Source of the DNA: an uncultured Bacilli bacterium
GTDB lineage: Bacteria > Bacillota_I > Bacilli_A > RF39 > UBA660
Direction of reading: 5' to 3'
NCBI GenBank assembly: GCA_944372545.1
Contig: CALVZO010000041.1
Coordinates: 3,325-67,324, forward strand
DNA: 64,000 bases
The notes under the pieces: model-generated
Database searches by the model: none
What the model was told of the DNA's origin: nothing
The model's input: only the letters and a program-made list of their open reading frames with translations
In this document: piece by piece, positions 648 through 49,556 of the stretch
How positions within the stretch are numbered: the stretch's first letter is position 1
How the letters are laid out: each line of letters begins with the position of its first letter
Position numbers and translations under genes: made by a program

Positions 648-2252
648 ATGAAAAAGAATATACTTATTTTTACTGCATTAGCAGCTTTGCTTTGTTCGTC
701 TTGTGCGACTGTTACTACTTCATCTAGTTCTAGTTTTTCATCTTCAAGTGATGATTTAACTACAACTACATCTAGTACCACTTCATCAACTAGTACGACA
801 ACAAGCTATCCTACTTCAATAAGTGTTGATTCTAATCCAAATACATTAGATTTTTACGCTATAAATGATTTTCATGGTCATCTTCAAGAAAATATTAATA
901 ATTATGAGCCCGGTTTAGCGAGAATTAAAACTTATTTAAATTATGAAAAACAAAAAAATCCAGATGGTTTTGTTTTCTTAAGCAGCGGGGATACATTTCA
1001 AGAAACTTATGATTCTTCAATTAATAAAGGTGAAGTTATGGCTAAAGCTTTGCCTTTAATGGAATGTGAAACGATGACTTTAGGTAATCATGAATTCGAT
1101 TGGGGAATTGATATTATAAAAAGAAATGCCGAATTTGCAGGGTCTTGTACATTTTTAGCAGCGAATTTGTATTATTATGATGAAGAAAATAAACAAGTAT
1201 TAGACTTTGCTAGCGATATTGTTAAAGAATATAAAATAATTGAACGTGGCGATTTTAAAATCGGTATTATTGGTATTATCGGACAAGGACAAATTACTTC
1301 TATTACTTCCTCTATTTGGGAAGGATTAACCTTTTTAGAACCTACAGAAATTGTTAAATCATTATCTGACGAATTAAAAGGTGAATTAGGATGTGATGTA
1401 GTCGTTGTTAGTGCGCATGCTGGTTTTGGTGATTTAGGATATACTTTTGCTAATCAAGTTACATCTATATCTCCTGTTACTAATAAAAGATATATTGATG
1501 CATGTTTTACAGCGCATTCCCATGGCTTTGATGATAAATATGTTAATAACGTCCCATTTTTACAAAGTGGAAGTAAGGGTCAATATATTTCCCATATTAA
1601 ATTAGAAGTTAAAGATGATGGCAGTGTAACAAGACTATACGCTCAAAGTGAACCTATCATGATGGATTTACCTCAAGATTATGAAATTCAATCTTATTTA
1701 GATTCTTATTTTGATGAAGCTTTCTATCAAGAAAAAGATGAAATAGTTGGCACTATTGAAGGCGCAAGTTATCTATCTAGATCTTTAGCGGGTAACTTAC
1801 TCGCGTATACAACGTATGATTTATTAGAAGATGAAAATATTGAAGTTGATGTCGTTATGAATAATGGCGGAAGAAATTCTATTAATCTTTTTGATAATGG
1901 TGGAATTTCTTTAGGGTTAATTTATGATGCTTTACCATTTTTAAATACAACGTATGTTTCAAGTGTTAAGGGCAGTGAAATTATGTATGAAATAAATTAT
2001 GGTAACACTTATTATGCACCAAATTTAACTCAAATTGATCCAAATAAATATTACACACTTGCGTGTATTGATTATTTATTACTACATAAAGATGTTGATA
2101 GAGAATATGATTATTTTCCAACATATGATGGAAATTATTCACATATAATTACCGATTATTCTTATGAAATTGTTTATGACTATTTTAAAGAAAATAAGAC
2201 AATTTCAATATCTACTTTAAATAATGATGCTGGATTTAGTAATCTAGACTAA
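648..2252 (+). CDS. Secreted/lipoprotein 5'-nucleotidase-type metallophosphoesterase
   Basis: Signal peptide with a Cys-containing lipobox-like LLCSSCA and a Ser/Thr-rich linker. Calcineurin-type motifs NDFHG, GDTFQ and GNHEFD follow, as in the UshA/5'-nucleotidase family. Confidence 0.75.
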   Translation: MKKNILIFTALAALLCSSCATVTTSSSSSFSSSSDDLTTTTSSTTSSTSTTTSYPTSISVDSNPNTLDFYAINDFHGHLQENINNYEPGLARIKTYLNYEKQKNPDGFVFLSSGDTFQETYDSSINKGEVMAKALPLMECETMTLGNHEFDWGIDIIKRNAEFAGSCTFLAANLYYYDEENKQVLDFASDIVKEYKIIERGDFKIGIIGIIGQGQITSITSSIWEGLTFLEPTEIVKSLSDELKGELGCDVVVVSAHAGFGDLGYTFANQVTSISPVTNKRYIDACFTAHSHGFDDKYVNNVPFLQSGSKGQYISHIKLEVKDDGSVTRLYAQSEPIMMDLPQDYEIQSYLDSYFDEAFYQEKDEIVGTIEGASYLSRSLAGNLLAYTTYDLLEDENIEVDVVMNNGGRNSINLFDNGGISLGLIYDALPFLNTTYVSSVKGSEIMYEINYGNTYYAPNLTQIDPNKYYTLACIDYLLLHKDVDREYDYFPTYDGNYSHIITDYSYEIVYDYFKENKTISISTLNNDAGFSNLD

Positions 2253-2872
2253 GATTTATTTAATAAATTGTTTATATTATTTATGATGGTGTTGACTTTA
2301 TCTAAATCAAGACCATCATTTTTATTATTAACAAAAATATAATCAGCGTTTAACTTACTCTTTTCAATATATAAATCGTGCATCGGCTTAACGGTATCAT
2401 AAAATTGTTTTAAAACACTTTCTTTTGTTCTTCCTCTTAAGACGATATCGCGATTAATACGTCGATTTAATCTAACATCCTCATCAGCGTCGACATATAT
2501 TTTATAATCTGCAATTTCTAATAATTGTGGAAAATATAAAGCGAAAATACCATCGATTAATAATATTTGATTATATTTAATTTTAATTGTTTCATTGCTT
2601 CTTAAATGTAGTTTAAAATCGTATGTAGGAATAATAATATCATTTCCATTTTTATATTCATTTATTTTTTCTAATAGCAAAGATACTTCATAAGCATTAG
2701 GATCATCATAGTTGAGTTTACATCTTTGTTCAAAACTTAAATGTGAGTTGTTTTTGTAAAAGTTATCAATATTAATTAACGAAGCATTATTTATCATTTT
2801 TAAAATTGTATCGCAAAGTAAAGTTTTGCCACTGGCAGAACCTCCACCAATAAGAACAATTAAAGGCTTCAT
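2249..2872 (-). CDS. udk: Uridine kinase
   Basis: P-loop GGGSASGKT plus the YVDADEDVRLNRRINRD and VKPMH blocks of uridine/cytidine kinase. Four-nt overlap with the pepT stop. Confidence 0.85.
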   Translation of the reverse strand: MKPLIVLIGGGSASGKTLLCDTILKMINNASLINIDNFYKNNSHLSFEQRCKLNYDDPNAYEVSLLLEKINEYKNGNDIIIPTYDFKLHLRSNETIKIKYNQILLIDGIFALYFPQLLEIADYKIYVDADEDVRLNRRINRDIVLRGRTKESVLKQFYDTVKPMHDLYIEKSKLNADYIFVNNKNDGLDLDKVNTIINNINNLLNKS

Positions 2873-4089
2873 ACTTTAACAACCTCCTTTAATATTTCAA
2901 TAAGCATATTATGTTCGCGAACATTTAAAAATTCTAAAACACCATGATGGTTGTATGATCCTGTACCAAGATTGGGAGTAGGGCAACCTTTAAAAGAAAA
3001 AGTCGCTCCATCAGTGCCACCTCGAATGGGAATGAATTTATATGGAATATTTAAATTATTGTAAGCTTTTATAATTTTATCTAACACGCTTTTATTTTGA
3101 TTAATAATTTCGGCCATATTTTTATATTGATATTTAATATTTAAATCCACATGAGATTTATTATATTTTTCTTCAACTATTTCTTTTGCTTTAACAAATT
3201 GATTTATTTTTTCTTCCAATTTTTCTTTATCAAAGTCTCTAACAATATAATTCATTGTTGTTAAAGATTCTTCACCATTAATGCTGTTTAAATGGTGAAA
3301 TCCTTGATAATCTTGGGTTTTTGCAGGGATTTCATCAGGATTTAAAAGGTTATCAAATTCATTAGCTAATAAAATTGAATTAATCATTTTGCCTTTTGCT
3401 TCACCTGGATGAATATTAAAACCACTTATTTTTACAATAACACTAGCGGCATTAAAGTTTTCATAACTAATTCCATAAGGAGTATCGCCATCAATCGTAT
3501 AAGCATAATTTGCTTTAAAAATTTTATTATCAAAATGATCTGCGCCTCTTCCTATTTCTTCATCACAAGTAAATAAAATTGATATAGGAACATGTTTAAA
3601 ATCTTTGTTAGTAGCGATATATCTTATTAAATTCATAATAATAGAAATACCAGCTTTATCATCCGCGCCTAACAATGTTGTTCCATCGGTAGTTATTAAA
3701 GTATCACCAATAAAATCATTTAAAATATGGAAATCGTTTTTAGATAAAATAACATTATTTTTTAAAATGATATCTTGTCCAGAATAATTATTAATGATGT
3801 TAGGTTTAACATCTTTTCCTGATACTTCTAAAGCGGTATCCATATGGGCATTAAAACCGATAGTGTCATAACCTTTTTCACCTTCAATAAATAAGTGGAC
3901 TTGACCAAATTCATCAATATAAGCATTATTAAAACCTAACTTTTTTATATCATTAAGTATTTCTTTAGCAAGATTAAGTTGTTTAGCGCTGCTAGGAGAA
4001 GTTAAACTTGTATCATCACTTTGTGTATCTATTTGGACATATTTTAAAAAATAATCTAATTTATTTAAATCATTATCCATTTTTGTCAT
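2869..4089 (-). CDS. pepT: Peptidase T (M20B tripeptide aminopeptidase)
   Basis: Colinear M20 motifs HMDT, GADDKAGI, CDEEIGRGA and HPGEAKGKM. Length 406 aa. Confidence 0.85.
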   Translation of the reverse strand: MTKMDNDLNKLDYFLKYVQIDTQSDDTSLTSPSSAKQLNLAKEILNDIKKLGFNNAYIDEFGQVHLFIEGEKGYDTIGFNAHMDTALEVSGKDVKPNIINNYSGQDIILKNNVILSKNDFHILNDFIGDTLITTDGTTLLGADDKAGISIIMNLIRYIATNKDFKHVPISILFTCDEEIGRGADHFDNKIFKANYAYTIDGDTPYGISYENFNAASVIVKISGFNIHPGEAKGKMINSILLANEFDNLLNPDEIPAKTQDYQGFHHLNSINGEESLTTMNYIVRDFDKEKLEEKINQFVKAKEIVEEKYNKSHVDLNIKYQYKNMAEIINQNKSVLDKIIKAYNNLNIPYKFIPIRGGTDGATFSFKGCPTPNLGTGSYNHHGVLEFLNVREHNMLIEILKEVVKV

Positions 4090-4696
4090 CCTTATTTAAA
4101 TTTAATATTTTATCTACGCCAGTAAGTTCAAAAAAGTAGGGCAATTGTTCGCACCATTTACAAAAAACATGCCATTCTTTTAATTTATGGAATCTTCTTT
4201 GTAAATACATAGTTTTAAGTTGTTGATAATTAGTAGTCATTGTCGCACCTAAACAAAATCCACATGGTAGTGACGCGACAATCTTTCTCCAAAGTACAAC
4301 TTTATTTGGATCATCATTATTTAATTTTAAATATTCATCAATAAGACTTTTAACAATTTCAATAACCCTTTCATCAGTGTCTTCAACACATTGATTTTTG
4401 ACATCAAATTTTAATAAACAATGCATAGTGGATTGGCTTGAAACATAATCAAACCAATGATATCTTTGTGCTTGTTTCCAAAAATATAATGGAGCGGTCA
4501 AATCCATTTGAACAATTATTCCTTTTAAAAAATTATCATGTCCTTGTCCATTTAAGGTTTGTCCTAATTTAAATGCACGATTAAAATCTTTTTCATTGAC
4601 ATCATTACGATCAAATATTGTTCGCATTGGATTCCCAGATGCTTTAATTGATTTTTCTATTCCATAGACTTCAGTATTTTCAATTTTAAATTCCAT
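4073..4696 (-). CDS. ThyX-fold protein with degenerate ThyX signature (function uncertain)
   Basis: Colinear with the ThyX core (GHDNF, TAPLYFW, SSQS, LQRRFHK). The RHR motif reads R78-Y79-H80 (nt 4457-4465). Tightly packed between folD and pepT. Confidence 0.5.
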   Translation of the reverse strand: MEFKIENTEVYGIEKSIKASGNPMRTIFDRNDVNEKDFNRAFKLGQTLNGQGHDNFLKGIIVQMDLTAPLYFWKQAQRYHWFDYVSSQSTMHCLLKFDVKNQCVEDTDERVIEIVKSLIDEYLKLNNDDPNKVVLWRKIVASLPCGFCLGATMTTNYQQLKTMYLQRRFHKLKEWHVFCKWCEQLPYFFELTGVDKILNLNKDDKNG

Positions 4697-4700
4697 TTTT

Positions 4701-5495
4701 TTAATTTTCTCCTTTACAAATTTGAATTAAATTTTCATATAAAGCAAGACGAGTCAATAATCCAACACCACCAGGGACAGGAGTTTGTAAGGCGACTGGT
4801 AAATCTTTTAATGCATCACCTTTTAATCCGTTTTCGCTTCGATTAATACCAACATCTACAACAACTGCATCTTTTTTATAAGAAAAACGATTATCTAAAA
4901 AGCTTTCTTTTCCAATTGCTATAACAATAATATCAGCATGACTAATATAAAACTTCATATCTTCAAATGTTGTTTTTGAATGTAAAATTGTCGTATTACA
5001 ATTTTCTTTTAATAACAATTTAGCCATTGGTTTACCAACAATATTACTTCTACCAATTACAACTGCATTTTTAGATGATAGTGTTATATTTTCGTGTTTA
5101 AGGTAATTTATAATTCCCTGTGGAGTGCATGGATTTAATTTACTTAATGGGTGAAAACCATCTACATCTTTTAAAGGTGAAATGGCTAATTTTATTTTTT
5201 CTTCATCAATATGTTTACCTAATGGAAGTTGAACAATAATCCCATCAATTGATTCATCATCATTATATTGTTTTATAATATCTAATAAATCGTTTTGACT
5301 AATATTTTTATCTAATTGTAGCAATTTAGCATCTATATCTAATTCTTTTGCATCTTTTAATTTACCTTTGATATATGCTTTGCTTGCTTCATCCTCATTA
5401 GCGTTAATAATAATTAAAGAAGGTTTTCTTTTTAATGATAAAACTATATTTTTTAATTCTTGTTTTCTTTTTAAAACATATTCTTTGATAGTCAT
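4701..5495 (-). CDS. folD: Bifunctional 5,10-methylene-THF dehydrogenase / methenyl-THF cyclohydrolase
   Basis: Full-length match to the FolD pattern: YIKGKLK, GIIVQLPL, GRSNIVGKPMA and PVPGGVGLLT. Confidence 0.9.
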   Translation of the reverse strand: MTIKEYVLKRKQELKNIVLSLKRKPSLIIINANEDEASKAYIKGKLKDAKELDIDAKLLQLDKNISQNDLLDIIKQYNDDESIDGIIVQLPLGKHIDEEKIKLAISPLKDVDGFHPLSKLNPCTPQGIINYLKHENITLSSKNAVVIGRSNIVGKPMAKLLLKENCNTTILHSKTTFEDMKFYISHADIIVIAIGKESFLDNRFSYKKDAVVVDVGINRSENGLKGDALKDLPVALQTPVPGGVGLLTRLALYENLIQICKGEN

Positions 5496-5496
5496 T

Positions 5497-5970
5497 TTAT
5501 TTAATCTCTATTTTTATATCTTTTCCTTGATATTTTCTTAATTTGATACCTGCAAGTTCTAACATCTTTTTAGAAGCTTGTGTCGTAATTTGATTTTCAT
5601 ATTTATTGTCTAAATAAACAACTTCTTTAATTCCAACTTGAATTATTGCTTTAGCGCATTCGTTACAAGGAAATAAAGTCACATATAAAATACAATTTTT
5701 CAAAGCAGAACCATTTCTAGTATTTAATATTGCGTTAAATTCAGCGTGGCAAACATACAAATATTTACTATCTAATCCTTCTCCTTTGTTCCACGATAAA
5801 TTTTCTTCATCAATATGTCTTGGCATGCCATTATAACCAATTGAGACAACTTTATTATCTTCATCGACAATGCACGCACCGACTTTAGTGTTTGGATCTT
5901 TACTTCTTAAAGAACTTAAAAGGGCTATGCCCATAAAATATTCATCCCAGTTTATATTATTCGTTTTCAT
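5497..5970 (-). CDS. dCMP deaminase (ComEB-type)
   Basis: Cytidine/deoxycytidylate deaminase zinc motifs CHAE and PCNECAK. N-terminal WDEYFMGIA block. 157 aa. Confidence 0.88.
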   Translation of the reverse strand: MKTNNINWDEYFMGIALLSSLRSKDPNTKVGACIVDEDNKVVSIGYNGMPRHIDEENLSWNKGEGLDSKYLYVCHAEFNAILNTRNGSALKNCILYVTLFPCNECAKAIIQVGIKEVVYLDNKYENQITTQASKKMLELAGIKLRKYQGKDIKIEIK

Positions 5971-6079
5971 ATTTTTTATTTTAGCAAAAATAATATTATA
6001 AATATATATTTAATTAATAAATTAATTAATTTTTATTTATTAGATAGATATTTAACATAGAAAGTGTCATAATTATTTT

Positions 6080-6769
6080 ATGGATTTTGTTGGTATTGAA
6101 AAACTTTCATTAGTTGATTATGATGGCAAAATATCTTGCATTTTATTTGCTAAAGGTTGCAATTTTTTATGTCCGTTTTGTCATAACAGCGAATTAGTCT
6201 TAGGAAAGATTAATTCCTTCATACCATTTGAAGATATATTAAATTATTTAAAATCAAGAAAAAATGTTTTAGACGCTGTTGTAATAAGTGGTGGAGAACC
6301 AACTTTAATGGATGACTTAAAAGATAAAATTATTCAAATTAAAAAGCTTGGTTTTTTAATTAAACTTGATACAAATGGAACAAGATTTGAAGTTTTACAA
6401 GACCTAATTAATTCTAATTTAGTTGATTATGTCGCTATGGATGTAAAAAATGATTTAAATTCTTATCAATTGACAATTAATAAAAATGATTTTGATTTAA
6501 CTGATGTTATTAAAAGTATCAATCTATTATTAGAAAATAGAGTCGATTATGAATTTCGCACTACTTTAGTTAAAGAATTCCATAATGAAGAATCTATTAT
6601 TAATATGGCAAAAATGCTAAAAGGCGCTAAAAGGTTATATTTACAAAAATTTATATCAAGTGAAAATTGTTTTAATAAAAATCTTCATCCTATAGAAAAA
6701 GAAGTATCTTTACATTATGTAAAAATACTTTCAGATTATATTGATCAAGTTGAATTAAGAGGTTATTGA
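6080..6769 (+). CDS. nrdG: Anaerobic ribonucleotide reductase activating protein (radical SAM), copy 2
   Basis: CNFLCPFCHN radical-SAM cluster, GGEPTL, KLDTNGT and YEFRTTLV blocks. Full-length paralogue of 10068-10757. Convergent with the trxB-like gene, overlapping its 3' end by 7 nt. Confidence 0.75.
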   Translation: MDFVGIEKLSLVDYDGKISCILFAKGCNFLCPFCHNSELVLGKINSFIPFEDILNYLKSRKNVLDAVVISGGEPTLMDDLKDKIIQIKKLGFLIKLDTNGTRFEVLQDLINSNLVDYVAMDVKNDLNSYQLTINKNDFDLTDVIKSINLLLENRVDYEFRTTLVKEFHNEESIINMAKMLKGAKRLYLQKFISSENCFNKNLHPIEKEVSLHYVKILSDYIDQVELRGY

Positions 6770-7671
6770 TTTAAATATTTAACTGCATTTATCGCACTAA
6801 TAGAGCCTTCACTACAGGCATTTATTACTTGGCGAATATCTTTTTTAATTGTATCACCACAAGCAAAGACACCTTTTAAAGAAGTCTCCATATTATTATT
6901 TGTTAAAATATAACCTTGATCTAATTTAATTATATTTTCAAACCTTTTGTTATCTGAAATTTGACCAATTGCAATAAAGACATTATTTGTATTTATTTTA
7001 ATAATTTCACCAGTTTTAGTATTTTTAAAAACTAAACCTTGTAAATTATTTTCACCTATATATTCAATTAAAGACATATTATAATTTATAAATATTTTTT
7101 CACTATTGAGTACTTTATTTTGCAATATTTCATCACCAAATAAATGATCAAATAGGCAATACATATTAACTTTTGGACAATAGCTTTCTAACATTAAGGC
7201 ATATTGTAAAGCACTATTAGCGTCACCAATAATATTTACTTCTTCGCCTTTATAAAATGGACCATCACATGTCGCACAATATGAAATGCCATGACCAATT
7301 AATTTTTCCTCATTTGGCAAATTTAAAGTTCTATGCTTAACTCCATTAGCAATAATAACTGCACCAGCTTCATATTGTTTAAAATTAGTTTTAATAAGAA
7401 ATTTCTTTTCTTCTAATTTAACAATTTCTAAAACTTCATCAAGTTCAAAATCTACACCTAAATTATTAATTTGACTAAACAAATTATCAGCAAATTCTAA
7501 TCCAGATATTTTTTCAATACTAGGATAATTTTCTAAGCGTGGTGAAGTAGCGATTTGCCCACCAAAAGATTCTTTTTCGATTATTAATACTTTTTTATTT
7601 TCTCTTAAAGCGTATAAAGCAGCACTCATCCCTGACGGGCCGCCACCAACGATTACAATATCATATCTCAT
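6763..7671 (-). CDS. Thioredoxin-reductase-like flavoprotein with degenerate NAD(P)H site
   Basis: FAD motif GGGPSG and redox CATC (res. 132-135). The NADPH GGGNSA motif reads GDANSA (nt 7210-7227) and HRRxxxR is absent (CLFDHLF). The ATG shares one base with the nrdD stop (TAATG). Confidence 0.7.
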   Translation of the reverse strand: MRYDIVIVGGGPSGMSAALYALRENKKVLIIEKESFGGQIATSPRLENYPSIEKISGLEFADNLFSQINNLGVDFELDEVLEIVKLEEKKFLIKTNFKQYEAGAVIIANGVKHRTLNLPNEEKLIGHGISYCATCDGPFYKGEEVNIIGDANSALQYALMLESYCPKVNMYCLFDHLFGDEILQNKVLNSEKIFINYNMSLIEYIGENNLQGLVFKNTKTGEIIKINTNNVFIAIGQISDNKRFENIIKLDQGYILTNNNMETSLKGVFACGDTIKKDIRQVINACSEGSISAINAVKYLNQ

Positions 7672-10049
7672 TAGGCTTGAGCCTCGATAAATCCTTTGAT
7701 CTTGCTTGCATTATCATAAAGTTGATAATGTTGTCCATCTGGAATTAATAATGTTGGTGCTTTTCTAATATCATATTTTAAGGCTAAAAGTTTTCCTTGT
7801 TCATCTTCAACATTAATTAATTGATATTTGATATTAGCTTTATCTAATAACATTTTAGCTAATTTACAATTTGGACAAGTAGAAGTTGTAAATAACATTG
7901 GTATTTGGATATCGTTAGTTTCTTTTGTTAAAACGACATCATCAATTCCATTTTCTTTTAAACTATGTGTAAGATGTGAATGTTCTAAATCGTAAGTTTT
8001 TCTATTTTTAAATTCTTCAGCCTTACCATCATTCCAGTTTTGAACAGGACGATAATATCCGGTAATTCTTGAATAAACCTCAGTTTTTTGATGGCATATT
8101 GGACATTCATATTCCTCACCATTTATATAACCATGATCTCGACAAACAGAGTAGGTAGGTGAAATTGTATAATATGGAAGATGATAATTTTCTGCGATTT
8201 TTCTAACTAAATTCATACAAGATTTCCATGATGGAAGTTTTTGTCCTAAGAAAGCATGGAAAACAGTGCCAGATGTATATAATGTTTGAAGTTCATCTTG
8301 AATATCTAAAGCTTTAAAAATATCATCAGTGTATCCGACTGGCAAATGGCTAGAATTTGTATAATAAGGTGTCTTATTATCTTCACTTGCAGTAATAATA
8401 TCTGGATATCTTTCTTTATCGTGCTTTGCTAGACGATACGCAGTTGATTCAGCTGGAGTAGCCTCTAAATTATATAAATCACCATATAATTCTTGATAAT
8501 CAGATAGTCTAGTACGCATATGATTTAAGACTTCTTTTGTAAATTTTATCGCTTCTGGATTAGTTAAATCTTTTTTAATCCAACGAGCATTAAGACAAGC
8601 TTCGTTCATACCTACTAAACCAATAGTAGAGAAGTGGTTATTAAATGTGCCTAAATATCGTTTTGTATATGGATATAATCCAGCTTCTAGTAATGCAGTA
8701 ACTGTATTTCTTTTAACTTTTAAACTTCGTGCAGAAATATCCATAATCTTATCTAATCGATGATAAAAATCTTGTTCATCAGTGCTTAGATAAGCAATAC
8801 GAGGCATATTAATTGTAACTACACCAATAGATCCAGTTGATTCTCCACTTCCAAAGAATCCGCCAGATTTCTTTCTTAATTCTCTTAAATCTAATCTTAA
8901 ACGACAGCACATACTTCTAACATCACTTGGTTCCATATCGCTGTTAACATAGTTACTAAAATATGGGGTACCATATTTAGCAGCCATTTCAAATAATAAT
9001 TTATTATTTTCTGTTTCAGACCAGTCAAATGTACGTGTAATAGAATAGGTTGGAATTGGATATTGGAAACCACGACCATTTGCGTCTCCTTCAATCATAA
9101 TTTCAATAAAGGCTTTATTGATCATTGCCATTTCTTTTACACAATCTTTATATTTAAAGTCTAATTCTTTGCCACCAACAATAGCGTTTAATTCTGCCAT
9201 ATCATTTGGAACAACCCAGTCAAGAGTAATGTTAGTAAATGGTGCTTGAGTACCCCAACGTGAAGGAGTGTTGACACCAAAAATAAATGATTGTATGCAT
9301 TGTTTAACTTCTTTATAAGTTAAATTGTCTACTTTAACAAATGGCGCGAGATAAGTATCAAAACTTGAAAAAGCTTGAGCACCAGCCCATTCATTTTGCA
9401 TAATACCTAAAAAATTTACCATTTGATTACATAAAGTAGATAAATGCTTTGCAGGTGCAGAAGTAATTTTGCCCGGAACACCACCTAAGCCTTCTTGAAT
9501 TAATTGTTTTAAACTCCATCCAGCACAATATCCTGTTAACATAGATAAATCATGTAAATGAATAGCAGCACTTCTATGAGCATTAGCAATTTCTTCATCA
9601 TAAACTTCACTTAACCAATAATTTGCAGTAATTGCTCCGCTGTTACTTAAAATTAATCCCCCAACTGAATATGTAACAGTTGAATTTTCTTTAACACGCC
9701 AATCAGTTACATTAATATAACTATTTACAACATCTTTATAATCCAAAACCGTTGATTTCATATTACGCATTTTTTCATGTAACTTACGATATAAGATATA
9801 TGATTTTGCAACATCAGAATACCCAGCTTTAGATAAAACTTCTTCTACACAATCTTGAATATCTTCAACAGATATTATATTATCCTTTAATTTTGGTTCA
9901 AATTCAGAAGTTACCTTTAATGCTAAAAAATCAATAACATTATCATCATAAGTTCTTTCTACTGAATCAAAAGCTTTTTTTATTGCTTCTTTAATTTTTA
10001 AAATATCAAATCCTACTATTTTTCCTTCTCTTTTTCTTACTTTATACAT
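7671..10049 (-). CDS. nrdD: Anaerobic ribonucleoside-triphosphate reductase fused to a C-terminal glutaredoxin-like domain
   Basis: ATP-cone N-terminus, MCCRLRL loop, zinc ribbon CRDHG..CPIC and glycyl-radical RITGYY (nt 8052-8069). An approximately 80-aa thioredoxin-fold tail follows, with CPNC at nt 7866-7877. Strong RBS ggaggagg. Confidence 0.9.
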   Translation of the reverse strand: MYKVRKREGKIVGFDILKIKEAIKKAFDSVERTYDDNVIDFLALKVTSEFEPKLKDNIISVEDIQDCVEEVLSKAGYSDVAKSYILYRKLHEKMRNMKSTVLDYKDVVNSYINVTDWRVKENSTVTYSVGGLILSNSGAITANYWLSEVYDEEIANAHRSAAIHLHDLSMLTGYCAGWSLKQLIQEGLGGVPGKITSAPAKHLSTLCNQMVNFLGIMQNEWAGAQAFSSFDTYLAPFVKVDNLTYKEVKQCIQSFIFGVNTPSRWGTQAPFTNITLDWVVPNDMAELNAIVGGKELDFKYKDCVKEMAMINKAFIEIMIEGDANGRGFQYPIPTYSITRTFDWSETENNKLLFEMAAKYGTPYFSNYVNSDMEPSDVRSMCCRLRLDLRELRKKSGGFFGSGESTGSIGVVTINMPRIAYLSTDEQDFYHRLDKIMDISARSLKVKRNTVTALLEAGLYPYTKRYLGTFNNHFSTIGLVGMNEACLNARWIKKDLTNPEAIKFTKEVLNHMRTRLSDYQELYGDLYNLEATPAESTAYRLAKHDKERYPDIITASEDNKTPYYTNSSHLPVGYTDDIFKALDIQDELQTLYTSGTVFHAFLGQKLPSWKSCMNLVRKIAENYHLPYYTISPTYSVCRDHGYINGEEYECPICHQKTEVYSRITGYYRPVQNWNDGKAEEFKNRKTYDLEHSHLTHSLKENGIDDVVLTKETNDIQIPMLFTTSTCPNCKLAKMLLDKANIKYQLINVEDEQGKLLALKYDIRKAPTLLIPDGQHYQLYDNASKIKGFIEAQA

Positions 10050-10067
10050 TTTAATCCTCCTCCAATA

Positions 10068-10757
10068 CTAAGATAAAGCCCGAATTTCCATATTAGGAAA
10101 ACTACCTTTCAAATTATCATTTATCATCAAAAGCTCATCATGAGAAAACCCATGTAAACTATGATTAATAACATCTTCACTATCTTCAAAATTTTGCAAA
10201 TAATATTTACATTTATTTCCAATATATTCACATATTTTTCTTAAATCATCAATTGTATGTAATTCTTTTACTATTGTAGTTCTAAACTCATAATCAATAT
10301 TACTATTTTTTAAAATATTTATACTTTCTTCAATATTTTTTAATAAAATATTTTTACCCACCGTTAATTTATATTTTAAAAATATATTCTTAATATCCAT
10401 AGCAACATAATCAATTAAATTTTCATCAATTAGTTCTTTTAGAACTTTTGGATTACTACCATTAGTATCAAGTTTAACAAGCAAACCTAAATCTTTTATT
10501 TTTTTTATAAAGCACTTAATATCTTTTTGAACTAATGGTTCACCCCCGGTAATAACAACACCATCTAAAATATTTTTTCTTTTATTTAAGTATTCAAATA
10601 TTTCATCTTCACTAATTTTACCCTTATCACATGGTATTAAACTAGAATTTTGACAAAACGAACAATTAAAATTACAACCCTTAGTAAAAATGGTGCAAGC
10701 TACCTTTTTAGGAAAATCTAATAATGTAACTTTTTGTAATCCTTCAATATAAATCAC
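10068..10757 (-). CDS. nrdG: Anaerobic ribonucleotide reductase activating protein (radical SAM), copy 1
   Basis: CNFNCSFCQN cluster, GGEPLV, KLDTNGS and YEFRTTIV. GTG start behind aggtggtgg, overlapping the upstream stop (GTGA). Confidence 0.8.
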   Translation of the reverse strand: MIYIEGLQKVTLLDFPKKVACTIFTKGCNFNCSFCQNSSLIPCDKGKISEDEIFEYLNKRKNILDGVVITGGEPLVQKDIKCFIKKIKDLGLLVKLDTNGSNPKVLKELIDENLIDYVAMDIKNIFLKYKLTVGKNILLKNIEESINILKNSNIDYEFRTTIVKELHTIDDLRKICEYIGNKCKYYLQNFEDSEDVINHSLHGFSHDELLMINDNLKGSFPNMEIRALS

Positions 10758-12715
10758 TTTACCACCACCTTTACTACTTTTACCTTTTCTTTTTCTAATT
10801 CCTTTATATAATCTTTTATTTTAGTTTTATTTCTATCAACATTTAATACTAAATTCAAACTACAAATTCTTTGATATTTTACTATATATTGATATAAAGC
10901 TTTATTACTTAAATCATTAAACAAACTACTTAAACTAGAATAAAAATCTTTTTTCAAAATCTCTATATTTCCAACCATAGCTTTATCTAATGCTAATAAA
11001 TTTTTATTTACTATTTTTGAACTTTCCTCTGCTAAAATAAAATTTAATTTTAAATCAGATTTATATTTATTTGTTTTTTCTTTCATAAATTCAACAATTT
11101 TTAAACCAAAATCCAATTTAACAACAGCTTTTTCAGAAACATCAAATAAAGCATCTAAACATTCTACCAAACCAGAAAAATTAATACATAAAACTCCATT
11201 TTTTAGAACTTTCCTTACTTTTTGATTACAATCAAGTTTTTTAGAGTCAAACAATATATTATTTTCAAAAATACCATTAAAATTCTCTTTATATAAACTA
11301 GATTGAAAATCATATCTTTGTATTAATTCATTTTTAGACAATTCTAATAAATCATCAAGTTCAGCAAAAAAGTCATTTATACTTTCCTTATTATATTTTA
11401 ATCCTAGCCTAGCCAAGTTAATTGTAATTGATGAATTAAGTATTCTACCTCGAGATGTTTGTAAATCATTATTAACATTTTCATTAATTATAATTTGATT
11501 ACTAAACGTTTCTAAATAATCATCGTATTCATTATTATCTAAATATAAAATAATAACATTATTTTTATTGTAAACCTCATCTACTATATAATCTAATGAA
11601 GTATTTTTTTTCACCTTACAAATAGTAGCAATCTTTTTAAAACTAATTTTATTTAAAATTTCAAAATATTTTTCTTTAAAATACATTGATTCAAAATCAT
11701 CAATTTCACTTAAACTAATTGATAAAGAAGTATCACTATATTTTAAATAATTACTATTAAAGTTTTTTAACAAAAGCTCAATATTTTTTAACAATTTAGC
11801 TTCTATATAATCATTAGTTATTCTATATATATCCCAAAAATAATTTTTTATTTTTTCATTTGGTAAAATTGCATCAAAAGCATCAATATTTATTTTAATA
11901 GTATTATTCTCAACTAATACATTTTTTAAATCATTAAAATCAAAAAATTCATATATTCCTAATACTTTAAAAAAACACTTTAAATTATCCAAAAATTTAT
12001 TATTAAAATCAGAAATCATTACATTTTTATATATTTGATCTAAATTTGAAATAGTTTGTTCGCCATATTGTTCACTTTTAAATCTATTTACTATATTTAA
12101 TATTTTTAAAGTAATTTCATCAATATCATTTGATTCGATACTACTAAAATCTAAATGAGATGAAGAAGTGGTTTTTAATGCATAAGATTTTAAATCATCA
12201 ATATAAATTCTCCCCTCTTCATGGGCACGAACATATTTTGATTCTAAAAGATAAGCTTTGGCAAATTCCTGAGAAATGGTCTTTCCAAAATTTAACAACA
12301 AATCGTCAGGATTAGCATTCTTAGAATTTTTAGCAGTCAATCCTATTTTTTCAATAGCTTTAACAAACTTATGTTGTTCTTTTACCGAAAAAGCTTCTCT
12401 TGAAGCGGCTCTACGCAACCGATATTCATTAAATTTTTTATATACATCATGATATCCGGCTTTTTTAAGCACATTTTCAATAATGTCTTGTATATCTTCA
12501 ACATTAATGGTTTTTCTATTTTCATAAGATTCAACTATAAATTTTAAAACTTGATTATAAACTCTATTTATTTTTTTTTCATTATTTATTTCGTTTTCAT
12601 CACTACTATCAAAAGCTTGTTTAATAGCAACAGCTATTTTAACACTATTAAATGATACTCGTTGACCACTACGTTTAACTACTACTAAATTTTCTAAAAC
12701 TGTGCTATTTTCCAT
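10754..12715 (-). CDS. ATP-cone protein, degenerate NrdD paralogue lacking catalytic Cys loop, zinc ribbon and glycyl-radical motif
   Basis: ATP-cone VVKRSGQRVSFNSVKIAVAIKQAF, with NrdD-colinear blocks RAHEEGRIYIDDL, SSITINLARLG and ILAEESS. No CCRL or RxxGY. Start placed at ATG 12715 behind GAGG; the ORF track starts at TTG 12730. Confidence 0.6.
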   Translation of the reverse strand: MENSTVLENLVVVKRSGQRVSFNSVKIAVAIKQAFDSSDENEINNEKKINRVYNQVLKFIVESYENRKTINVEDIQDIIENVLKKAGYHDVYKKFNEYRLRRAASREAFSVKEQHKFVKAIEKIGLTAKNSKNANPDDLLLNFGKTISQEFAKAYLLESKYVRAHEEGRIYIDDLKSYALKTTSSSHLDFSSIESNDIDEITLKILNIVNRFKSEQYGEQTISNLDQIYKNVMISDFNNKFLDNLKCFFKVLGIYEFFDFNDLKNVLVENNTIKINIDAFDAILPNEKIKNYFWDIYRITNDYIEAKLLKNIELLLKNFNSNYLKYSDTSLSISLSEIDDFESMYFKEKYFEILNKISFKKIATICKVKKNTSLDYIVDEVYNKNNVIILYLDNNEYDDYLETFSNQIIINENVNNDLQTSRGRILNSSITINLARLGLKYNKESINDFFAELDDLLELSKNELIQRYDFQSSLYKENFNGIFENNILFDSKKLDCNQKVRKVLKNGVLCINFSGLVECLDALFDVSEKAVVKLDFGLKIVEFMKEKTNKYKSDLKLNFILAEESSKIVNKNLLALDKAMVGNIEILKKDFYSSLSSLFNDLSNKALYQYIVKYQRICSLNLVLNVDRNKTKIKDYIKELEKEKVKVVKVVVK

Positions 12716-12930
12716 TTCTCTTAACCTCAAATTAATTATAACAAATCGTCATATAATTGCAATGTTTTTTTTTACCATTTTTTTAACATTTTTTTATTAT
12801 TTTAAATTTTATCTTTAATTTTTAGAAAAAAAAACATTTTAAATATATTGTAAATCTATGTAAATATTATACAAATAAATTACATATTTTAACAAATAAT
12901 AAAATTCAAATAACTTAAATAAATTTTTAC

Positions 12931-12959
12931 TTGTCAAAATAAACAATTTATGTTAATAT
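12931..12959 (+). promoter_or_regulatory. Sigma-A type promoter for tRNA-Met
   Basis: TTGTCA-N17-TAATAT with a TGn extension, about 20 nt upstream of the tRNA 5' end. Confidence 0.5.
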
Positions 12960-12977
12960 ATTAATACAAATTGACAT

Positions 12978-13054
12978 GGCGATGTAGCTCAGTTGGCTAG
13001 AGCATCCGGTTCATACCCGGCAGGTCGTGTGTTCGAATCACACCGTCGCTACCA
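12978..13054 (+). tRNA. tRNA with CAT anticodon (Met, or Ile2 if lysidine-modified)
   Basis: Hand-folded cloverleaf: acceptor ggcgatg/cgtcgct, D arm gctc..gagc, anticodon loop ttCATac, T arm gtgtg-ttcgaat-cacac, encoded CCA. Confidence 0.85.
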
Positions 13055-13065
13055 AATTAAAATTT

Positions 13066-13088
13066 AACTCCATGTTTTTGGAGTTTTT
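13066..13088 (+). terminator. Rho-independent terminator after tRNA-Met
   Basis: Hairpin aactcca/tggagtt followed by a T-run. Confidence 0.65.
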
Positions 13089-13181
13089 AATTTGGAAAAT
13101 TATCTATAACTTATTTTTAAAATGTGTTATACTTTTGAAAGTAAAGGAATAAATAATATGTAAGAAAAAGTTAATAAAATA

Positions 13182-13681
13182 ATGAATATTATGGAAGGTA
13201 TTCAATACGGATTTAAAGATAAGATGGGTAATAATTTAATAGATGATGAAAATGAGTGGAATAATGAATTTAATAATTTTTATTACTTACAAAGTGCTTC
13301 AGAACTTTTAAAAAGTAAATGTGGTATATGTTGGGATCAAGTAGAATTAGAAAGATATTTATTTAATCAAAATAATATTAAATGTAAAACTTATTTTATT
13401 TTTTTAGATGGCAAAGATTATTTGCCTTCGCATACATTTTTAGTTTACATTTGCAATAATAAATATTATTGGTTTGAACACTCTTGGACTGAGTACAAAG
13501 GAATACATAAATATAATAGTGAAATAGATTTATTAAATGATGTTAAATAAAATTTCAAAAAGAACATTATATATTAAAAAATGCTAATATTTACTTATAT
13601 GAAAATGAAAAACCTAAGTCACATCTTCGAAGTAATGAGTTTTATCAATATATAGAAAATCAAAAGAGAATATATTTATAA
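13182..13681 (+). pseudogene. Frameshifted hypothetical protein (putative Cys/His hydrolase-like)
   Basis: The 122-aa ORF stops at 13548-13550 inside the A/T run gttaaataaaattt. A second frame continues for 43 more codons (IKFQKEHYILKNANIYLYENEKPK...) to TAA 13679-13681. Confidence 0.5.
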
Positions 13682-13767
13682 TTTTTTGTCAACAACATGT
13701 AAATTATGTCAAAATTGCCCAAATAATGTTATAATTATGTTATTCTAATACAGAAAGCGAGTTAGAT

Positions 13768-14397
13768 ATGGAAAATTTAATTATTGGTATAATGAATAAA
13801 TATGGTTATATTGGTATTAGTTTATTAATATTAATCGAAAATATATTTCCTCCAATACCTAGTGAACTAATATTAACTTTCGGGGGATTTATGACTATTG
13901 AAAGTAATATGACTATTCTAGGAGTTATTATTGCTTCTACTATTGGTAGTGTAGTCGGGGCGATTATTTTATATTATTTAGGAATGATTTTAAATAAAGA
14001 AAGATTAATAAAAATTGTTAAAAGTAAATATGGAAAATTACTTAGAATTAAACCTAAAGATATTGAATCTGCAGACCATTGGTTTGATACAAAAGGAAAT
14101 AAAACGGTTTTTTTCTGTCGCTTTGTTCCTGTAGTTCGTAGTTTAATAAGTATACCTGCCGGTATGAGTGAGATGCCATTATTAAAATTCATTATTTATA
14201 CTATAGTAGGTAGTGCCATATGGAATACGGCATTAGTTTTAGTCGGGGCTTTTGCGGGAGATAAAAGAGATTTAATTTTAGAAATAATTGATAAAGTTTC
14301 AATATTTATTGTGATATTTATAGCAGTAGCGTTCTTTGTAGTAGTGTACCTTTTCTACAAAAAAAGACTTAAAAAAAGAAGGAAAGCAAATGACTAA
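13768..14397 (+). CDS. DedA family membrane protein
   Basis: Multi-pass membrane ORF with DedA-type blocks ENIFPPIPSE and FCRFVPVVRSLISIPAG. Confidence 0.75.
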   Translation: MENLIIGIMNKYGYIGISLLILIENIFPPIPSELILTFGGFMTIESNMTILGVIIASTIGSVVGAIILYYLGMILNKERLIKIVKSKYGKLLRIKPKDIESADHWFDTKGNKTVFFCRFVPVVRSLISIPAGMSEMPLLKFIIYTIVGSAIWNTALVLVGAFAGDKRDLILEIIDKVSIFIVIFIAVAFFVVVYLFYKKRLKKRRKAND

Positions 14398-48140: not shown

Positions 48141-49556
48141 ATGAAACAAAAGAAGAAAAGAAAAATAAATATAATTTTTACAATTATTTTGTTAGTAACG
48201 ATACTAATATTTTTTAGTTTATTATTTTATATAAATATAATTCCTATACTTTATACAATTATTGGTTTAATTATAAGTCTAATATTTGCATTTGGCATAA
48301 TTTTATTAAATTTTAGAAGGATTAGAATACTAAGAATTATTGGTTATACATTAAGTACAATAATTACGGGACTTTTAATATTTATTATAGTTTATTTATT
48401 TAATACAATTGGATTTTTATTTAATGTAACTGATGGTGACTATGTTATGCATACTTATAATATATTAGTATTAAAAGATAGTGATTATGAAAAAATAGAT
48501 GATTTAGAAAATTTAGTTATGGGTATTAATGAAACCACTAGTGAAGAAGAACTTAATAAATTAAAGAAAAATATTGAGAAAAAAATAGACACTAGATATA
48601 GTGAATTTGAAGATATAACATCTTTAGTAGATGGTTTAATAAATAGAGATGTTGCAAGTATCGTATTAGAAAATAGTGAACTTGATTTATTAAAAGAAGA
48701 AACTTTAGAAAGTTATAATTTATTAAAAAATATTTATCAAATTGAAATAAAAAATGATATAAGTGATTTAAAAGATATTATTAATATTAATAGTGAGCCA
48801 TTTAATATCTATATTAGTGGTATAGATACATTTGGAAGTGTTAATAGAACAGGCCGAAGTGATGTTAATATGGTTGTAACTATTAATCCCAAGACTGAAA
48901 AAGCCTTTATAACATGGGTACCTAGAGATTATTATGTATTTATAAATAATAGTAGTTATAAAGATAAACTAACTCATGCTGGTATTTATGGAATTGATTC
49001 AAGTATTTATGCAATGGAAAAATTACTAGATGTCAATATAAATTATTATGTTAAAGTTAATTTTACATCTGTTATTGAAGTTGTTGATTTACTTGGAGGA
49101 ATAACTGTTAATAATGAAGAGGCTTTCTACTTCGATGATGGTACATACTTTGCTAAAGGTAATATTAAATTAAATGGAGAAGATGCTCTAAAATTTGTAA
49201 GAGAGAGAAAAAGTTTAAGTGAAGGTGACATAAGTAGAGGTAAAAATCAAATAAAAGTGTTGGAAGCAATAATTAATAAAGCCTTATCACCTAGTATTAT
49301 AAAAAATTATAATAGTTTATTAAAATCATTAGATAATGCTTTTGTAACTAATATGAGTCAAAATACAATGATCGGATTTATAAGAAGAGAGTTAACTAAC
49401 AAGAGAAACTGGCAATTTAGTAGTTATACTTTATCTGGTACTGATAGTAACGAATACACATATTCTTATAAAAATAAATTATTATATGTCATGTTACCTA
49501 ATGAAGAATCAGTAAGTACTGCCAAAAAGAATATTAAAGAAATGATGGAAGGATAA
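48141..49556 (+). CDS. LytR-CpsA-Psr (LCP) family protein
   Basis: N-terminal TM helices, then LCP blocks RSDVNMVVTINP, VPRDYYV and FVRERKSLSEGDISRGKNQ. Confidence 0.8.
   Translation: MKQKKKRKINIIFTIILLVTILIFFSLLFYINIIPILYTIIGLIISLIFAFGIILLNFRRIRILRIIGYTLSTIITGLLIFIIVYLFNTIGFLFNVTDGDYVMHTYNILVLKDSDYEKIDDLENLVMGINETTSEEELNKLKKNIEKKIDTRYSEFEDITSLVDGLINRDVASIVLENSELDLLKEETLESYNLLKNIYQIEIKNDISDLKDIININSEPFNIYISGIDTFGSVNRTGRSDVNMVVTINPKTEKAFITWVPRDYYVFINNSSYKDKLTHAGIYGIDSSIYAMEKLLDVNINYYVKVNFTSVIEVVDLLGGITVNNEEAFYFDDGTYFAKGNIKLNGEDALKFVRERKSLSEGDISRGKNQIKVLEAIINKALSPSIIKNYNSLLKSLDNAFVTNMSQNTMIGFIRRELTNKRNWQFSSYTLSGTDSNEYTYSYKNKLLYVMLPNEESVSTAKKNIKEMMEG

Follow-up and report, generated by a model that had tools for sequence, protein, structure and literature searches.

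Introduction

Why would a class III ribonucleotide reductase (RNR) operon begin with a gene for a reductase-like protein that has lost the means to reduce ribonucleotides? The question is raised by a 64,000-nucleotide stretch of DNA from an uncultured Bacilli bacterium (contig CALVZO010000041.1 of assembly GCA_944372545.1), hereafter the window, in which four closely packed genes on the minus strand, 6763-12730, encode a NrdD-like protein, an activase (nrdG1), an active NrdD of 792 amino acids (aa) and a thioredoxin-reductase-like protein (trxR). The first of these proteins, the product of window positions 10754-12715 at the head of the operon, is here named psiNrdD, or psi for short. Allosteric control of RNR is a textbook case, and the structural work that clarified it for class III enzymes between 2023 and 2025 placed this control in cis, through the ATP-cone, the connector and the flap.

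The initial annotation of the locus had described an open reading frame (ORF) of about 653 codons with an ATP-cone, whose stop overlaps the GTG start of nrdG. It took the product for a dead paralogue of the neighbouring NrdD, whose reading frame is preserved and whose translation is coupled to that of the activase, and it suggested an allosteric nucleotide sensor, a regulatory subunit or an activase partner as possible roles. The analysis reported here bore out the ORF, its reading frame, its coupling and its lack of catalytic elements, and corrected its descent. We conclude that psiNrdD is probably an undescribed regulatory or scaffold subunit, and neither an enzyme nor a decaying gene.

A class III reductase fold that has lost its catalytic elements

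Profile searches matched the Pfam ATP-cone at residues 16-107 of psiNrdD (E=2e-14, 54 bits against a gathering threshold of 25.8) and Pfam NRDD at residues 138-568 (E=7e-28, 98 bits against a cutoff of 26.2), the latter covering only model positions 6-412 of 562. The neighbouring 792-aa protein matched Pfam NRDD over its full length and carries its own ATP-cone and a C-terminal glutaredoxin domain, and is therefore called NrdD-Grx below. The best NCBIfam model for psiNrdD was PRK07111, with 182 bits and thus under the equivalog cutoff of 764, and TIGR02487 scored 89 against a cutoff of 326, while NrdD-Grx matched PRK08270 with 1131 bits. An AlphaFold2 (AF2) model of psiNrdD, based on 56 homologues, had a predicted local distance difference test (pLDDT) value of 86 and a predicted template modelling (pTM) score of 0.82, and it showed the RNR/glycyl-radical-enzyme fold, a ten-stranded alpha/beta barrel that has the finger loop at its centre. 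The best Foldseek matches of this model were the class III reductases of Prevotella copri, Streptococcus thermophilus, phage T4 and Thermotoga, with E=5e-29 to 8P2C and a template modelling score of 0.79, the highest obtained, at a root-mean-square deviation of 3.9 Å over about 550 residues to 8P2S. The C-terminal tail, which had been described as rich in Lys and Val and as standing in place of the missing domains, was found to be the last barrel strand (residues 647-652 in the AF2 model).

The identity between psiNrdD and NrdD-Grx was just 20-25%, and together with the difference in subtype (PRK07111 versus PRK08270) this ruled out that psiNrdD is a recent duplicate of the neighbouring nrdD. 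The idea of a dead paralogue was thus correct as to the loss of activity and the NrdD fold, but not as to derivation from the neighbour. The nearest catalytic relatives of psiNrdD are 33-35% identical to it and have the VVKRSGQRV cone signature in common with it, which traces psiNrdD back to the formate-type (MGCR, PRK07111) NrdD lineage, the active neighbour being of the MCCR type. Formate-type NrdDs with an ATP-cone (PRK07111, or NrdD1; P. copri 8P23-8P39 and S. thermophilus 9D3X) were also the best match in both sequence and structure, with the same domain order of ATP-cone, linker helix and ten-stranded barrel with finger loop, and with identical ligands in the two-nucleotide ATP-cone. NrdR was ruled out as an identity for psiNrdD, which has no Zn ribbon and comprises 653 aa with a NrdD barrel.

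The nearest catalytic relatives are split NrdDs (loci L073, L074, L078-L081 and L085; for example, positions 5965-8450 of L073). In these, an ORF of about 756 aa ends just past the Zn ribbon. The glycyl-radical loop (...FDRIRRITGYLVGT...) is encoded separately, by an ORF of 55-70 aa that has a ribosome-binding site of its own and is followed by a short nrdG. Such a stand-alone glycyl-radical peptide of an RNR would resemble GrcA/YfiD of pyruvate formate-lyase; according to a 2026 review, spare-part proteins are known for formate lyases only (PMC13450708).

The fate of the catalytic elements was followed in 76 non-redundant psiNrdD sequences, taken from 80 GTDB loci and from other contigs. The sequence and numbering of P. 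copri NrdD, used in this section, were rebuilt from a HMMER alignment, and the functional residues reported for that enzyme (PMC11226230) were mapped onto the orthologues. The NxN active-site flap and the beta-hairpin of the specificity site were deleted in all 76 sequences, and the Zn ribbon and glycyl-radical domain were absent from all of them, the protein ending at the last barrel strand. The thiyl-radical residue Cys416 was replaced by Asn or Asp in 63 of the 76 and otherwise by Thr, Ser or Leu, and was Cys in none. Cys171, on the first strand, was mostly Ser, the first His of the HxHD triphosphate motif was Tyr or Phe in 70 of the 76, and Asn435 was mostly replaced by a hydrophobic residue (Ile, Val, Leu or Phe in 56 of the 76, with Lys in 14). 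Loop 2 of the specificity site was shortened and variable, and the ATPAE phosphate loop was lost, with no conservation in its place. At all of these elements, both catalytic Cys residues included, psiNrdD differs from the formate-type NrdDs. An MCCR/MGCR loop, a Cys4 ribbon and an RxxGY motif are all found in NrdD-Grx and are all missing from the window protein. The loss of catalytic elements first noted for this one protein proved to be family-wide. Judged from the aligned residues, the whole psiNrdD family is catalytically dead. The ATP-cone is intact: the equivalents of the ligands Lys7, Arg8, Tyr83, Arg87 and Arg91 were invariant in all 76 orthologues.

A C-terminal domain hidden by a frameshift or by read-through was ruled out, since nrdG starts in the psi stop codon in another frame and all orthologues end alike; because the psi stop overlaps nrdG, there is no downstream coding remnant of the glycyl-radical domain. 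Neither a thiyl-radical Cys nor a radical Gly was recovered in this way.

Conservation along psiNrdD was highest in residues 1-180 and 421-520 and lowest in the former dimer-interface and specificity-site region. One alternative is that psiNrdD is an enzyme with a new, non-radical chemistry in the old barrel. [quoted passage not shown] However, 74 of the 78 strongly conserved positions were inherited from the catalytic relatives, with just A34, D74, E219 and K578 being psi-specific; the search for a new conserved Cys in the family found none, and the phosphate-binding motifs are gone. We therefore consider a new enzymatic activity to be highly improbable. A basic surface hinting at nucleic-acid binding was also sought in the family and not found, and the median isoelectric point was 7.4.

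psiNrdD is maintained by purifying selection

Of the 80 GTDB species loci that were retained, at least 72 carried psiNrdD. The first protein search gave more than 120 clusters at 90% identity, and an exhaustive profile search of 1.84 billion representative proteins gave about 90 clusters of full-length proteins at 50% identity. The protein occurs in gut Bacilli that are uncultured and low in GC, with labels such as Candidatus Avacholeplasma, Candidatus Onthocola and 'Mycoplasma sp. CAG:776'.

All orthologues were intact ORFs of 625-675 aa, free of stops and frameshifts. The ratio of nonsynonymous to synonymous substitution rates (dN/dS) was calculated by the Nei-Gojobori method, with medians taken over 25 moderately diverged genome pairs. 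The median was 0.11 for psiNrdD, similar to the values for its neighbours nrdG (0.14) and trxR (0.12), and 0.036 for nrdD. Inside psiNrdD, the N-terminal 185 residues, which comprise the cone and the linker, had a dN/dS of 0.07 compared to 0.145 in the barrel core. With this degree of constraint and an intact frame in at least 72 species, a decaying pseudogene was ruled out.

NrdD-Grx was strikingly conserved across L001-L085, with about 85-100% amino acid identity in residues 1-700. Among species that share this near-constant NrdD-Grx, identity has fallen to 40-70% for psi, NrdG and TrxR. Adjoining genes of the operon showed discordant divergence in several genome pairs, which suggests that the operon often recombines internally.

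psiNrdD is coupled to the activase, and a second dead NrdD is fused to it

In about 70 species the operon had the order psiNrdD-nrdG-nrdD(Grx)-trxR. The psi stop was located no more than 10 nucleotides (nt) from the nrdG start in all 67 distinct junctions and overlapped it in 43, as in the window, where the two codons overlap as GTGA. The spacers between nrdG and nrdD were mostly 12-34 nt long. In the orthologues, the last psi codons often carried a GAGG/GGAG-type Shine-Dalgarno-like sequence just 5' of the nrdG start. The psi-coupled NrdGs formed a clade apart from the solo NrdGs, with 42-45% identity between the groups and 57% within the coupled group.

The overlapping stop and start codons, and the Shine-Dalgarno sequence that lies within the final codons of psi, could be taken to mean that psiNrdD is a relic whose frame stays open only for the delivery of ribosomes to nrdG, or because the folding of NrdG needs some upstream polypeptide, and the psi core does evolve about 6-fold faster than NrdD. 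However, a spacer ORF would not give a dN/dS as low as 0.11 over the whole gene and 0.07 in the cone, nor would it keep the nucleotide-binding residues invariant in 76 of 76 sequences or a confidently folded 650-aa barrel over sequences that are just 35-58% identical. In addition, catalytic death with retention of the protein has arisen independently more than once, as described next. A relic of this kind is thus scarcely credible.

The profile search also returned a fusion protein of 892-931 aa in metagenome-assembled genomes of Acholeplasmataceae, with 13 clusters that were 54-100% identical. In its NrdD part the MGCR motif has changed to SASR, HxHD and ATPAE are lost, and RRITGY has changed to RRINDL, which lacks the Gly but is conserved, while the Zn ribbon is mostly kept. 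The NrdG domain is intact, with the CX3CX2C motif present. The fusion gene lies directly downstream of a gene for NrdD-Grx, which is 67% identical to the window enzyme, at both sampled divergence levels, and no other radical S-adenosylmethionine (SAM) gene was called within the flanks of about 6-7 kb retrieved around the fusion loci. The cone of the fusion protein resembles that of catalytic Acholeplasma NrdDs (KIRKRDGR...) and not that of the psi family. This cone type, together with a rough neighbour-joining tree, indicates that NrdD was inactivated at least twice independently. Among the roles suggested by the initial annotation, the independent fusion of a dead NrdD with NrdG favours that of an activase partner.

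Further distant NrdD-like proteins (P0226, P0191, P0217, P0167 and others) have ATP-cones and are without the glycyl-radical domain and the catalytic Cys. One of them lies next to, and is divergent from, an nrdD-nrdG pair of the MCCR type. It thus seems that dead NrdDs are more widespread, and they may be polyphyletic.

A proposed role at the activase and the evidence that bears on it

Our best explanation, put forward tentatively, is that psiNrdD serves the activase as a non-catalytic partner that senses ATP/dATP and modulates the installation of the glycyl radical on NrdD-Grx, a role that we hold to be plausible although short of likely. In this proposal psiNrdD would be the descendant of a formate-type class III reductase, stripped of the substrate, specificity-effector and radical functions, that has kept what appears to be a fully competent two-nucleotide ATP-cone, the linker helix between cone and core, and the barrel as a scaffold. 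It would be made together with NrdG by translational coupling, the two being covalently joined in the second lineage. The NrdD-shaped body would hold or position NrdG, the ATP-cone would shift the oligomeric state or the docking with the ATP/dATP ratio, and the efficiency of glycyl-radical installation on NrdD-Grx would be modulated thereby.

In real NrdDs, the cone acts in cis by freeing or restraining the connector that bears the NxN flap (PMC11226230; PMC12662201); tetramerisation and disorder of the glycyl-radical domain are further effects of the cone in P. copri NrdD (PMC11226230). psiNrdD has lost the flap and every ligand site of the barrel, but selection is strongest on its cone, and the psi cone must therefore act on another molecule. 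NrdG is the likely partner: its gene is coupled to psi, a dedicated clade of nrdG is inherited together with psi, and a covalent fusion has arisen independently. From this we infer that psiNrdD binds NrdG, that it behaves in a nucleotide-dependent manner and that it affects activation.

Several observations weigh against a role at the activase or are neutral to it. The psi-linked NrdG is of the NrdG2 type and not of the short type that accompanies the catalytic relatives of psi, and a retained ancestral complex would not readily account for the psi family. A mirror-tree analysis with partial correlation of psi, NrdG, NrdD and TrxR in 61 genomes gave no partner-specific signal; all pairs correlated at 0.54-0.77, which can be read as phylogeny, blurred further by recombination within the operon. 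The AF2 model of the natural dead-NrdD::NrdG fusion had a pTM of 0.69, with low confidence in the linker and in parts of the NrdG domain. In one locus, L051, which is the sole exception to the usual operon order, psi is coupled directly to an active full-length nrdD of the MGCR type, which is followed by a short nrdG. The loci of two close relatives, L096 and L097, contain nrdD(Grx)-trxR and a convergent solo nrdG with no psi nearby, and their NrdD-Grx proteins are 92% and 78% identical, respectively, to that of the window. Finally, three of the distant NrdD-like proteins that lack a glycyl-radical domain are located outside any nrd operon.

The arrangement in L051, where psi is translationally coupled straight to the reductase, agrees with a different explanation, namely that psiNrdD belongs to the reductase itself as a regulatory subunit, which forms mixed oligomers with active NrdD through cone-cone contacts or as a barrel heterodimer and transmits the ATP/dATP status or enforces half-of-sites behaviour, comparable to the pairing of dead Rnr4 with Rnr2 in the class I RNR of yeast. 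psi is always co-transcribed with a NrdD that bears an ATP-cone, no part of psi is better conserved than the cone, and dimers of P. copri NrdD associate by their cones in dATP-induced tetramers (PMC11226230). We nevertheless consider such a subunit unlikely, as the canonical dimer-interface and specificity region is the least conserved in psi and contains deletions although the partner NrdD is 85-100% conserved in the same species. Furthermore, psi partners two unrelated types of NrdD, and both the gene coupling and the fusion indicate NrdG and not NrdD.

The distant Cys-less proteins with ATP-cones in non-nrd contexts (P0191, P0217 and P0226), and the NrdD-Grx systems that do without psi, would be compatible with psiNrdD being a free-standing ATP/dATP-binding sensor or buffer whose target is outside the class III system and whose place in the operon reflects ancestry only. 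However, within the psi family neither the operon position nor the tight coupling to nrdG varies over at least 67 species, although the operon often recombines internally, and the cassette moves along with nrdG. A sensor of this kind is thus improbable as well.

psiNrdD is accessory, and the window locus is a mosaic

The loci L096 and L097 run the same NrdD-Grx and TrxR with a solo NrdG, so psi is an accessory that is not required for activation; it travels with its own clade of nrdG. The best 120 matches of the search with NrdD-Grx were all at least 78% identical, and psi-less operons were seen at two relatives.

From about position 9440 down to 1670, the window DNA was 96-99% identical to the psi-less L096 (GCA_949286895.1), whereas an adjacent tract of 3.6 kb was about 99% identical to the psi-bearing L006, which belongs to another GTDB species (L006/L007). 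This tract comprises part of the tRNA-Met gene, the promoter, psiNrdD, nrdG1 and the first 600 nt or so of nrdD, and its crossovers are located inside the highly conserved nrdD and at or within the tRNA-Met gene. The difference in identity between the flank and the tract shows that the window locus is a recent chimera in which an L096-like genome gained a tract with the promoter, psi, nrdG1 and the 5' part of nrdD. As the tRNA-Met gene marks one edge of the tract, it may have served as a recombination anchor.

The chimera also explains the two nrdG copies that the initial annotation had recognized, since the tract was acquired by a genome that already owned an activase, now nrdG2. Placed in another clade than the psi-coupled NrdGs and 46% identical to nrdG1, nrdG2 is the native solo activase of the L096-like backbone. 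The genome now holds two activases for one reductase.

Organization of the locus

The psiNrdD ORF was listed as 10754..12730 (-), with 658 aa and a TTG start. The likely start is, however, the ATG at 12715, which is preceded by GAGG at 10 nt and by a promoter match at about 20 nt, and the likely product is therefore the 653-aa protein. A search of the window for NrdR boxes (ACACWATATWTWGTGT, with at most three mismatches) gave 11 matches compared to 14.5 expected, none of them near the operon promoter; the best match, at 48589, was within an unrelated membrane-protein gene. An Rfam scan of window positions 5000-14000 found the tRNA-Met gene only, and no riboswitch or leader element. Directly past the RNR genes lies a nucleotide-metabolism cluster (2249-5970, minus strand) that is conserved in L096. 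The coordinates of these features, and of the other loci with dead NrdDs, are given in Table 1.

Table 1. Features of the window and of further loci with NrdD-like proteins (positions refer to the window unless a locus is named)
Feature	Position	Strand	Description
psiNrdD coding sequence	10754..12715	-	653 aa, ATP-cone and dead alpha/beta barrel; TGA stop overlaps nrdG GTG start
Predicted sigma-70 promoter of operon	12735..12762	-	TTGCAA, 16 nt, extended TG-TATAAT; by consensus match
ATP-cone of psiNrdD	12410..12685	-	VVVKRSGQRV...YRLRR; nucleotide-ligand equivalents invariant
Degenerate substrate-phosphate motif and first barrel strand	12158..12205	-	HxHD changed to YIDD; catalytic Cys changed to Ser (TTSSS)
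Finger-loop tip of psiNrdD	11495..11512	-	MGCR thiyl-radical motif changed to ETFSNQ
nrdG1	10068..10757	-	NrdG2-type activase (TIGR02495), translationally coupled to psiNrdD; clade of psi-coupled activases
Active NrdD (NrdD-Grx)	7671..10049	-	MCCR type, PRK08270; own ATP-cone, Zn ribbon, RITGY motif, fused C-terminal glutaredoxin-like domain
trxR	6763..7671	-	thioredoxin-reductase-like flavoprotein; last operon gene
nrdG2	6080..6769	+	second, stand-alone activase; convergent with trxR
tRNA-Met (CAT) gene	12978..13054	+	divergent from operon promoter; at one edge of acquired tract
Acquired tract	9425..13023		recently acquired recombinant segment, about 99% identical to L006
dCMP deaminase	5497..5970	-	nucleotide-metabolism cluster
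FolD	4701..5495	-	nucleotide-metabolism cluster
207-aa ORF	4073..4696	-	no Pfam match on record; nucleotide-metabolism cluster
Peptidase T-like M20 protein and uridine kinase	in 2249..5970	-	nucleotide-metabolism cluster
Dead-NrdD::NrdG fusion loci	L086-L088 7001-9715; L094-L095 6001-8736		ATP-cone, dead NrdD and intact NrdG
Distant NrdD-like proteins without glycyl-radical domain	L089 7001-9043; L091/L092 5001-7127; L093 5001-7091; L090 5001-7142		

Comparison with known systems and significance

In yeast class I RNR, the small subunit Rnr2 needs as heterodimer partner its paralogue Rnr4, which is catalytically dead and has no nucleotide-sensing domain. psiNrdD is like Rnr4 in being a dead paralogue of an RNR component that is retained under selection as a non-catalytic partner. 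The two differ in RNR class, subunit and fold, and Rnr4 pairs with its live paralogue whereas psiNrdD is linked to the activase and stems from another NrdD subtype than its neighbour.

An ATP-cone can also serve as an ATP/dATP sensor outside a catalytic subunit in NrdR, the transcriptional repressor of nrd operons that combines a Zn-ribbon with an ATP-cone (PMC9110341; PMC12176259). In contrast to NrdR, psiNrdD has a dead barrel of 550 aa in place of a Zn-ribbon DNA-binding domain, and its promoter has no NrdR boxes. The ATP-cone-bearing NrdB, the radical-generating subunit of class Id/Ib, is an earlier example of allosteric on/off control through the radical-generating side of an RNR instead of the catalytic subunit (PMC5794259). 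There, the cone is fused directly to NrdB, while in the model proposed for psi a dead reductase body, either separate or fused, would lend its cone to the radical-SAM activase. In eukaryotes, fusions of active NrdD with NrdG are known (NrdDG; PMC3019208), which, as in Acholeplasmataceae, have a reductase body and an activase on one chain. However, the eukaryotic proteins are presumed to be catalytic, whereas the Acholeplasmataceae fusions are without all catalytic residues and are encoded beside a separate live NrdD-Grx.

In the literature searched, we found no description of a dead, pseudo, split or fused NrdD like psiNrdD, nor of a dead NrdD-NrdG fusion beside a live reductase. psiNrdD is a NrdD-derived pseudoenzyme, and its probable role is one not described for class III RNR. 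The psiNrdD and fusion proteins are publicly named 'hypothetical protein' or 'anaerobic ribonucleoside-triphosphate reductase', and because dead proteins bear these names, annotation distorts the inference of RNR content, and of formate- versus thioredoxin-dependent synthesis of deoxyribonucleoside triphosphates, in uncultured gut Bacilli.

Dead NrdDs of this kind are widespread and under selection; what they retain is the sensor and the scaffold, and they are joined to the activase through coupling in one lineage and through fusion in another. This suggests regulation or assembly at the step of radical installation, of which no description is known for any glycyl-radical enzyme. With four small co-encoded proteins, the system is directly testable in vitro. 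A wider and more doubtful possibility is that many gut Bacilli and Acholeplasmataceae have an extra allosteric layer, in which a dead body with a live cone is bound or fused to the activase and gates radical installation on a separate thioredoxin-type NrdD by the ATP/dATP ratio. If true, anaerobic RNRs would have in psiNrdD their first pseudoenzyme subunit, its NrdG would be the first nucleotide-regulated activase of a glycyl-radical enzyme, and this layer would have arisen at least twice as the formate-type NrdD became redundant beside an incoming NrdD-Grx.

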